This document shows, piece after piece, positions 2,103-50,929 of a stretch of DNA of 64,000 nt. Source of the stretch: Octopus sinensis. Its lineage: Eukaryota. The stretch is taken from the NCBI RefSeq assembly GCF_006345805.1, contig NC_042999.1:79112001-79176000 (forward strand), in the 5' to 3' direction. Within the stretch, counting starts at the first letter, position 1, and each line of letters starts with the position of its first letter. Under the pieces are notes generated by a model. That model worked only from the letters and a program-made list of their open reading frames with translations, did not search any database and was not told where the DNA came from. Position numbers and translations under genes: made by a program.

Positions 2103-2246
2103 TAAATTGCAAAGTGGGACAAGAACGCAAAAACACACAGAGAACGACACAAAAAAAACACACGGGTCACTCGAAGCTTCTAATCTTCAGTCGGAACCGG
2201 ATCATCTTAGCAATTTCGGCTGTTTATCTCGATATCACTCCGAACA

Positions 2247-5319: not shown

Positions 5320-5394
5320 CATAATATACATATATATATTTATACAGATGTGTTTATGTATGTATATATATATATGTGTATATATATATGTAAA

Positions 5395-5870
5395 ACTTGT
5401 GTTTCTTTCTTTCCTTCTGTTTCAGCTGGGGAGAGCAGAAGCATTCTTGTCTGTCTTCTCTCCAAGCTTACTCCTCCGCATTCGCCACCTCACCTCGTTT
5501 AGGCTTAGCACCCCTTCCTGTTTGTTTTCATTGTCCTGTTTTTGTTACCAATTTTGACCCTCCTCAAAATCCTAAATGTTATTTAATTTGCTTAGCGGGA
5601 GCAACTGTTTTATCGAAGGCGTATCTTGTCGCGAATTGTTCGAAATACGGATTATAAAAACAACTAACAACTGATGAGGGTCATTCTTTGTTTTGCTTGG
5701 CTTATTTTCCATTTGTTTCTCTTCTTGTTCGCAAAAAACGTTCATATTCCATGTATTCGTATTTCGTATTTCGTATTTCGTAATTCATGTTTTCGTATTT
5801 TATATTGTTTACGTTCTGTGATGTCCTGCGGCCAAACATGCATATGTATATACGTATATATGTAAGTATG
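5395..5870 (+). mobile_element. Non-coding interspersed repeat carrying a permuted HHR (copy 1)
   Basis: Homologous to the reverse complement of ~22050-22362; T-rich tail ending in tgtcctg..catatgtata; flanked by (TA)n. Confidence 0.65.
5620..5681 (+). ncRNA. Non-circularly permuted hammerhead ribozyme
   Basis: CGTAT-C^-TTGT-(8 nt)-GTTC-GAAA-TACG-(17 nt)-ACAA-CTGATGA-GGGT; AUC site; stems I and III covary relative to the 41166 and 47033 copies. Confidence 0.68.
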
Positions 5871-5892
5871 TACACACACAATATATGTATAT

Positions 5893-5924
<32 letters not shown>

Positions 5925-6006
5925 ATATATATATAATATATATATATATTATATTAAATTAGAGATAAAACCACTATTAGGCAAATCAAACAGTGAAAAA
6001 CATAAT

Positions 6007-6041
6007 GTTTCCGACGAAGAGCTCCGCTCGAAACGTTAAAC
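6007..6041 (+). ncRNA. Minimal type I hammerhead-like motif (variant core CCGACGA)
   Basis: GTTT-CCGACGA-A-GAGC-tcc-GCTC-GAAA-CG-TT-AAAC. Confidence 0.55.
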
Positions 6042-22039: not shown

Positions 22040-22628
22040 TGTATGTATGTATATATATATGCATAGGTGGACACAGGACGTCACGAAACGTGTACAACAA
22101 AATAATACGAAGTACGAGAATATGGAATATGAACTATTTTTTCGAACAACGAAAGACACAAATGGAAAACAAGACGAACAATATAAAGAACACCCTTCAT
22201 CAGTTGTAGTCTGTTTTTTTTTGCTCTCGTATTTCGATCATTTAACAACAATATATGCTTTCAATAAAACAGTTGCTCTCGTTAAGCAAATTAAATAAAA
22301 TTTGGGATTTTGTGGAGGGTCAAACAGAACAGTGAAAACAAACAAGGGAGGGCTGCTAAGCTTCAAGATTTCAGGATCCAAATTTCAGTGTTTAGTTTGC
22401 AATGAAGAGAATTTGGGTGTTGTACAGACTGAGGTTGTCCGACTGGTCAATATCCTGCTTGCTCCAGATCGATGGTAAGCCAGTATCCAGTTTGCTACAG
22501 ATCGGTGGTAAGCGCGTATATAAATAATATTATACTTATGACAGTCTAATAAAATCCTATCGTTTATCATTACACACTGGTATGTTGGATATACGTAATA
22601 AGTCCCCATACAAAGTGCACGTTACAAA

Positions 22629-33112: not shown

Positions 33113-33858
33113 GTCAGAAACGTTAGCACGCCGGGCGAAATGCTTAGCGGTATTTCGTCTGCCGCTACGTTCTGAGTTCAAATTCCGCCGAGGTCAACTT
33201 TGCCCTTCGTCCTTTCGGGGTCGATTAAATAAGTACCAGTTACGCACTGGGTCGATATAATCGACTTAATCGGTTTGTCTGTCCTTGTTTGTCACCTCTG
33301 TGTAGCCCCTTGTGGGCAGTAAAGAAATAGGTATTTCGTCTGCTGCTACGTTCTGAGTTCAAATTCGCCGAGGTCAACTTTGCCCTTCGTCCTTTCGGGG
33401 TCGATTAAATAAGTACCAGTTACGCACTGGGTCGATATAATCGACTTAATCGGTTTGTCTGTCCTTGTTTGTCACCTCTGTGTAGCCCCTTGTGGGCAGT
33501 AAAGAAATAGGTATTTCGTCTGCTGCTACGTTCTGAGTTCAAATTCCGCCGAGGTCGACTTTGCCTTTCATCCTTTCGAGGTCGATTAAATAAGTACCAG
33601 TTACGCACTAGGGTCGATATAATCGACTTAATCCGTTTGTCTGTTCTTGTTTGTCCTCTCTGTGTTTATCCCTTTGTGGGTAGTAAAGAAATAGGTATTT
33701 CGTCTATCATTATGTTCTGAGTTCAAATTCCGCCGAGGTCGACTTTGCCTTTCATCATTTCGGGGTCGATAAATTAAGTACCAGTCTCGTATTGGGGTCG
33801 ATCTGATCGACTGGCCCCTCCCTAAAAATTTCGGGCCTTGTGCCTAGAGTAGAGAGAG
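33113..33858 (+). mobile_element. SINE family B with four internal ~180-bp tandem units
   Basis: Units start at 33149, 33330, 33510 and 33694 (ggtatttcgtct..gagttcaaattcc..gcctttcatcctttcggggtcga). Confidence 0.85.
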
Positions 33859-46989: not shown

Positions 46990-47345
46990 ATTTTATTTTA
47001 ATTCTCTCGAGAGAAGGCCTAGCATGACCAGACGTGTCCTGTCTTGCCTTCGAAACACGCTATGTCTGCTAGCGACAGCTGATGAAGGGGATTTTTCCTT
47101 GTGCAGCATGTCCTGTACTTCGTTTTTCTGCTGTACACAATTGTTTTTCCCGTTTTCGTTTCGTCTTGTTCCACGTCTCTGTCCTTCTGTTGTAACAAAA
47201 TGGCTTTTCCGTTTTCGTTTCTGTTGATTTTTACGTCTTCTTGTGGTGTTCTGTACGTATATATATTTATATATGCATGTATATATACATGTAGATGTCG
47301 GTACGTACATATATGTTTGTATGTATGCATATATTTTATTTATTA

Positions 47346-49784: not shown

Positions 49785-50225
49785 TGGCTGCGAGCTGGCA
49801 GAAACGTTAGCACGCCGGGCAAAATGTGTAGCAGTATTTCGTTTGTCTTTACGTTCTGAGTTCAAATTCCGCCGCGGTTGACTTTGCCTTTCATCCTTTC
49901 GGGGTCGACAAATTAAGTACCAGATGCGTACTGGGGTCGATCTAATAGACTGTTCCCCTCCCCCAAAATTTCGGGCCTTGTGCCTAGAGTAGAAAAGAAT
50001 ATTTTAAAGAAGGCGGCAAGCTGGCAGAAATGTTAATACGCCGGGCGAAATGCTTATCGGAATTTCGTCCGTCTTTACGTTCTGAGTTCAAATTCCGCCG
50101 CGGTTGACTTTGCCTTTCATCCTTTCGGGGTCAATAAATTAAATACCAGTTGCGTACTGGAGTCGATCTAATCGACTGGCTCCTTCCCCCCAGATTTCGG
50201 GCCTTGTGCTTAGAGTAGAAAAGAT
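49785..50225 (+). mobile_element. Two tandem SINE family B monomers
   Basis: Copies at ~49785-50000 and ~50011-50225. Other diverged copies at ~4173-4590(-), 9120-9305(+), 14700-14905(+), 39568-39705(-), 53112-53320(-), 62450-62820(-). Confidence 0.85.
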
Positions 50226-50929
50226 TATATTAGACATTTCGATTTTATCTTTGAATTCGTTTGATACCCAAGGTTCTTTAAAGTGTAGTAATCGAACACA
50301 CGAACATCGTGACAATCAGAATGGTATAGTTTTAGCCATAAAAATTATTTTGTATAGAAGATAAATATAAAGTAGTAAGCTTTATACTTTCCGCAATAAT
50401 TAATAGTCATTATAATTGAAATTGCATCAACCACAACTGGGCCACGTTAAATCGTTTTATCAGACAAGATTCACTGTGAACTCATAATGAGTGTATCGCA
50501 TATCTATAGGTTATATCTGTCGCAGTAGTAAATTATGGCCACTAACATAGGAGAGACAAATGATGCCGCGCCCAGAATCAGTTGTTCCTTTACAATTTCA
50601 TAGCAATTTACTTAACATTTATGGTTAAATGTATTTTCGATTATTAATTAGAGCTGTTTCAGCTCATCACGTGACCAATTTTAGCTTTTGATGCAAGTCC
50701 AAGCCTGAAATCAGAATATTAAGACAGTTTAGTATATAATCCTGATCTTGACAGTGGGGTAGTCTTAGTTCTAACAGGTAGTGAATTATCAGAGCCAATA
50801 GAATACTGCGCAGCCGGCTCACTATATTATGATATTAATACTAGTGACGACGCCTTGTATTCCTTCGATGTCAATAAACAGTACTTGCCAAGTAGTGGGG
50901 CTGTTTATTCTCTTCCAACATCTGTCTAG

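Follow-up and report, generated by a model that had tools for sequence, protein, structure and literature searches.

A non-coding repeat of the octopus genome ends in what is likely a self-cleaving hammerhead ribozyme of unusual wiring, in which the three conserved blocks follow one another in the order S-G-C and stem II is made with a strand lying upstream of the blocks, not with the strand that follows CUGAUGA. On comparative grounds, we put the probability of this reading at roughly 0.78. One damaged copy of the repeat lies in the 64-kb stretch of octopus DNA analyzed here (the window; Table 1). The same predicted fold is found in two unrelated groups of animal retrotransposons, in each case at the tail of the element, and one of these groups has been reported to be without a hammerhead.

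The hammerhead blocks of the window copy span 5620-5681 in a non-circular S-G-C order, and CUGAnGA, GAAA, and a U-H cleavage site are all present (GAAA at 5642-5645 and CTGATGA at 5671-5677, within a segment, 5665-5682, that reads TAACAA-CTGATGA-GGGTC). An earlier sequence-only reading had paired CGTAT (5620-5624) with ATACG (5645-5649) as stem III and TTGT (5626-5629) with ACAA (5667-5670) as stem I. Both pairings hold and are kept in the family majority sequences, where stem I is longer, at 6 bp (TTGTCG/CGACAA), and the compensatory swaps pointed out relative to the copy near 47 kb (A-U for G-C in stem III, U-A for C-G in stem I) recur there as well. The stem I reference of CTGT/ACAG used in that comparison is right for the 47-kb copy but wrong for the copy near 41 kb, which has CTGC/GCAG in stem I, CTGAAGA in the core, and a UU site. 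CUGAUGA, GAAA, and the AUC site ending at C5625 are in place, as described, but the A expected after CTGATGA has been lost. Stems I, H, X, and Y of the window copy also contain substitutions, stem I is weakened, and the copy is probably inactive or weak; we regard it as the fossil of a selected source element. An Rfam scan of the 64-kb window gave no family match at the gathering score, and an antisense reading was dropped, as the minus strand has no core.

Table 1. Parts of the window copy and related copies elsewhere in the window (position 1 is the first letter of the window)
Feature	Position	Strand	Remark
5'-truncated non-coding Penelope-like repeat copy	5390..5880	+	between (TA)n arrays; ends approximate
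Z strand GACCCT	5556..5561	+	predicted partner is the strand directly 3' of CUGAUGA
Hairpin H	5562..5598	+	abuts Z and X with zero unpaired bases; two mismatches in window copy
X strand GAGCAA	5599..5604	+	predicted 5' strand of stem II; first G partners the C preceding GAAA
Y strand CTGTTTT	5605..5611	+	helix linking the far ends of stems I and II, leading into stem III
Block S: stem III CGTAT, predicted cut after C5625, stem I TTGTCG	5620..5631	+	
Block G: stem II 3' strand TTGTTC (family TTGCTC), GAAA, stem III TACG	5636..5649	+	
Y' strand	5657..5663	+	one substitution in window copy
Stem I strand, CTGATGA, and Z' strand	5665..5682	+	first A of Z' deleted in window copy
Second, more decayed copy, same subfamily group	22193..22321	-	absent from the sequence-only reading
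Young sister subfamily, copies 93-97% identical, all six helices	41107..41227	+	
Young sister subfamily copy, 5'-truncated within hairpin H	47004..47090	+	
Decayed 5'-truncated copy of distant family L, fold alike	2184..2238	-	absent from the sequence-only reading

The fold rests on the majority sequences of 14 annotated families (one further family was dropped because Z had been mis-called, and two gave no annotation). Core letters and a U-H site are found in 14/14, and stems I and III are also paired in all of them (one stem III pair in 13/14), with two to four pair types per position, so the proposal that selection has acted on the fold across subfamilies is supported more strongly than when it was made. 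The fold as originally drawn was nevertheless incomplete: stems I and III were correct, but stem II was overlooked and four upstream helices were missed. A direct stem II would pair the strand that follows CUGAnGA with the one that precedes GAAA, and its first pair forms in none of the 14 families. The strand before GAAA pairs instead with an upstream strand, X, the first pair being G-C in 14/14, and the strand after CUGAnGA pairs with another upstream strand, Z. Hairpin H fills the gap between Z and X with zero unpaired bases (one extra G in some copies of family K), and helix Y connects the base after X with the base before stem I and continues toward stem III. In the window copy, the upstream sequence with which these two strands would pair lies at 5556-5604. 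When the 120 nt upstream were shuffled in each of six families, the junction score was reached in 0, 3, 0, 0, 0, and 1 of 1,000 shuffles.

These comparisons show six predicted helices (Z, H, X serving as stem II, Y, III, and I), all of which covary, both across families within the genome and across 3' UTRs of REL-type LINEs from metagenomes. Z, H, and X adjoin one another directly, leaving no base unpaired, and would thus form a four-way junction with the core; X, Y, and stem I are likewise shown sharing a predicted second junction. The strand order would be that of the CSG/SGC/GCS circle opened inside block C, between A9 and 10.1, with the ends clasped by Z and H. In the hammerhead fold, stem III is directed away from stems I and II, and Y would therefore have to turn back. 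A kink-turn register at the III/Y hinge, defined as a 3-nt bulge followed by tandem G-A/A-G pairs, occurs in 14 of 33 metagenome motifs, compared with 0-5 at other bulge sizes; the window subfamily is GA-rich at this hinge, with a register that is not clean. Single-sequence folding, a method that cannot model pseudoknots, predicted that some stretches of the motif pair differently in several families. No hammerhead structure with an interruption after A9 is known to us.

Among described ribozymes, the closest is type SGC (HRIMA-1 and variants), which shares with the octopus motif the S-G-C order, a full core, and a short linker from stem I to stem II, and members of this non-circular class cleave in vitro, as presented in the sections of Eckert 2023 (PMC10085705) drawn on here. 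In type SGC, stems I and II are further connected by a helix labeled "I" there, to which octopus helix Y may be equivalent. It keeps block C whole, a block that those sections take to be uninterruptible, whereas in the octopus fold the strand after CUGAnGA would pair with Z and stem II would come from upstream; it was also first found on metatranscriptome contigs bearing hairpin ribozymes, in contrast to the high-copy genomic retroelements that carry the octopus-type fold. The octopus motif likely works like a hammerhead, but as predicted it is not type SGC as defined, because block C is interrupted. Type CSG, represented by two sequences in the same sections, belongs to the same non-circular strand-order family but, unlike the octopus fold, has a whole block C and no Z/H junction. 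The type I hammerheads of Penelope-like elements and non-LTR retrozymes, as far as covered in the portions of PMC8557442 and bioRxiv 10.64898/2026.07.22.740005 consulted, likewise sit near the 3' end of the repeat, and their carriers likewise target (TA)n and form partial tandem or inverted copies; they differ in having a nested C-G-S order, no pseudoknots, and a length of ~40-90 nt, compared with ~110-130 nt for the octopus motif. The wiring has no description in the literature that we searched, and subscription journals and the Eckert supplements, which lay outside that search, could bear on its novelty.

The pattern running from CGAAA to CTGAnGAAG in the G-to-C order has 9,263 exact matches in the octopus genome, compared with 139 for a reversed-pattern control, and the remaining last letters of the pattern add a further 981 (213 in the control), giving ~10,000 matches versus 352 for both sets combined. 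The pattern is far more abundant than expected by chance. For the interspersed family there were 2,901 first-look candidates, of which 40 were scored. The full unit is ~700-900 bp long and non-coding, with microsatellite flanks, and units often occur as partial tandem or inverted pairs; such arrangements, together with microsatellite targets, are described as typical of Penelope-like elements in the part of PMC8557442 drawn on here, and the repeat displays each of these traits. Loose clustering yielded mostly unrelated repeats, and only the clusters of families K and L were kept. In 28 sister copies, core positions are changed in 9 of 252 cases and other non-CpG sites in 156 of 2,851, about equal, and because the core decays like the sites around it, selection appears to act on source elements, not on the window copy itself.

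The repeat has no RT plus GIY-YIG ORF of its own, and a same-strand Penelope-type ORF lies within 1.5 kb upstream in only 1 of 235 copies. As a candidate autonomous partner, a Neptune-like RT/GIY-YIG family located beside one copy was rejected: it has its own 3' end, and a core at the matching distance was found in only two of 30 loci, one of which was the query. The 235 copies yielded no other autonomous partner. This family is itself abundant (15,631 first-look candidates; loci L266-L295), and its tail, ~450 nt past the GIY-YIG match, contains a type I-like motif with GAAA, a UC site, and an altered CUGAnGA strand. In its 5' part, at L016:1075-1370 as read in the direction of the motif, the repeat unit has GTAAG, then a pyrimidine tract, then CAG, a layout resembling the retained 5' intron of Penelope elements.

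One group of carriers consists of LINEs with a restriction-like endonuclease. Family K lies in the 3' UTR of such an element, shortly after the stop codon. Its reverse transcriptase belongs to Pfam RVT_1, with R2 proteins as the nearest solved relatives, a CCHC knuckle and a restriction-like endonuclease motif can be recognized by eye, and we regard the element as HERO-like; a LINE protein in the octopus genome and one from Octopus bimaculoides match at 85%. R2-type LINEs carry HDV-like ribozymes, to which PMC13725137 refers, at their 5' end, which are also self-cleaving RNAs in a REL-endonuclease LINE but represent another ribozyme class at the opposite end from the octopus-type motif, a predicted ribozyme of the 3' UTR. 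A metagenome scan with an alignment of the C-terminus of the family K LINE returned 80 loci at 28-67% identity, on contigs that, judging from named fish and cephalopod homologues, presumably derive from animal hosts. Enough 3' sequence was available at 64 loci, with exact S-G-C blocks at 39 and none exact at 25. After dereplication, 26 of 33 motifs have the gap-free junction, compared with 40 of 1,056 upstream swaps, and the other seven are without a strict junction. Covariation was assessed on 16 of the 26 junction motifs, picked for similar length, trimmed at Z, and aligned with plain MAFFT. The six-helix model pairs 93.7% of cells in this alignment, with double changes at 27 of 33 pairs, a level that none of 500 shuffles attained, and slid controls pair 36-46%. 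Helix Y alone is paired in 92% of cells, with double changes at three of five pairs, and RNAalifold finds Z, H, Y, and III unaided. In a scan of viral contigs, one short motif gave seven matches, none with the full fold by eye. In two viral contigs (L478, L479), GAAA is followed by CTGATGA, in G-then-C order, and a stem III may form; no full junction is visible, and the arrangement is probably due to chance.

The second group comprises the Naiads, which the available text of Craig et al. 2021 (PMC8557442) describes as lacking canonical hammerheads, with some flagged HHR_half_core. Among passages around exact 7-letter cores, which cover part of the 54 Naiad ends, at least nine consensus passages show the predicted octopus fold by eye (three from Acropora records, two from Octopus records, and four whose header was not visible), and in two more the fold is approximate. 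In another six passages, four of them nematode by file order, the hammerhead appears by eye to be complete and in plain CSG order, and stem II to be formed directly. Within the octopus genome, 242-283 sites match the motif of the octopus Naiad consensus exactly, and in 15 genomic copies the fold is visible wherever the copy is untruncated; none of the 15 ends between the predicted cut site and the anchor. The window repeat differs from Naiads in having no ORF.

The 5' ends of genomic copies bear on cleavage in vivo. In a set anchored on GAAA and blind to what lies upstream (n = 146), 24 copies from 10 subfamilies start at +1 to +13 past the predicted site (P ~3e-9), none starts at -4 to 0, and 49 starts are spread across the 180 nt upstream. 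A control anchor ~200 nt downstream, with which 95 of 96 unique copies were aligned and which partly overlaps the GAAA-anchored set, gave a similar result: 15 of 67 copies at risk end at 0 to +19, compared with 39 of 981 (~4%) in other bins (P ~5e-8), and the neighboring bins hold 1/52, 4/71, and 3/74. The mode lies at +6/+7, alignment ends are uncertain by a few bases, and most truncated copies start 5-8 nt past the site, so end-trimming must be assumed. The simplest reading of the pile-up is that the template had its 5' end at a cleavage site, although 52 of the 95 downstream-anchored copies run through it. The 3' ends of copies, at loci mostly chosen on the motif, show no pile-up at the site (1 of 244 at 0-19). 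Of 70 rows in a table of tandem copies, 45 were dropped, mostly as microsatellite matches; in the 25 left, units join tail to head at one same point in independent loci, and 11 extend upstream beyond a second site. These joints would fit a re-ligated circular template and, equally, read-through of genomic tandems combined with slow cleavage.

In the mechanism that we favor, X would act as stem II by stacking onto the core, and a single molecule could fold back on itself through a sharp bend at the III/Y hinge, where many relatives have the kink-turn register. The RNA would be cut after C5625, and the two products would stay paired. Reverse transcription would be primed at the TA-rich tail, and running off at the nick would leave short copies, whereas passage over an uncut or re-joined site would give long and tandem ones. 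A different possibility, which we consider unlikely, is that the fold is active only between two copies, with the stem III loop of one RNA docking on the junction of another. The kink-turn register at the hinge fits a fold-back monomer, and LINE carriers have a single motif per element; yet fold-back would be tight in family K, L484, and L524, where Y is short or there is nearly no III/Y hinge, and tandem units are common. Dimeric cleavage by Penelope hammerheads was reportedly described by Lunse in 2017, and dimeric hammerheads also occur in newt. It is slightly less probable still that the motif serves as a conserved structural signal, such as a binding site for reverse transcriptase, and keeps the hammerhead letters but barely cuts, with the pile-up of 5' ends produced by polymerase stalling. 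The copies that pass through the site, the offset of 5' ends from it, and the missing spike in the 15 Naiad-like copies are all in keeping with such a signal, but stalling is expected before the helices, at +20 to +60, where only 4/71 and 3/74 end, or at hairpin H, where only 2/49 and 2/51 do, and unrelated carriers retain both the catalytic letters and the U-H rule.

There is very little to recommend an ordinary type-SGC ribozyme with a direct stem II (a bulged A, then G-C, G-U, G-C) in which the upstream pairings are an inhibitory alternative. A bulged version of 3-4 bp can be drawn in 11 close subfamilies, including that of the window, but in family K it cannot form at all (CCCC against CCCC), in families J and L it is reduced to 0-1 bp, and on the 16 aligned metagenome motifs its first pair forms in 0/16, with 56% paired overall, a value reached by 33 of 500 shuffles. 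To the suggestion that the pairings arose by chance, or were inherited without selection in a neutral repeat, we attach next to no weight: single copies do decay about neutrally, but at the family level the swap and shuffle controls, the excess of the pattern, and the covariation refute it.

Beyond the repeat itself, the wiring with an upstream stem II might represent a fourth non-circular hammerhead wiring, opened within a core strand and held by a perfect four-way junction, that is a widespread functional component of animal retrotransposons (Naiad, HERO-like LINEs, and their non-coding passengers), cutting element RNA and re-joining it as circles, on which reverse transcription starts at an internal TA-rich site. 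We hold this wider proposal tentatively, at somewhat less than even odds. If true, the circles would explain both the "missing" hammerheads of Naiads, offering a direct answer to their apparent absence, and the precise head-to-tail tandems. It would turn non-circularly permuted hammerheads from rare environmental sequences into a high-copy feature of animal genomes and would break the published assumption of uninterruptible core blocks. For a predicted ribozyme in a LINE 3' UTR, cleavage or ligation must also be squared with target-primed reverse transcription.

Several minor features accompany these elements. Family I (L194, L195), known from two 5'-truncated copies only, has the S-G-C blocks and helix Y. 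At 33149-33812 and 49786-50232 of the window, a SINE-like repeat, common among the fetched loci, forms tandem arrays with periods of 180 and 226. The window also contains, at 6006-6041 (+) and ~30406 (-), two short type I hammerheads in Penelope style, in both of which CCGACGA replaces CUGACGA, a change that may be a family-wide core variant.
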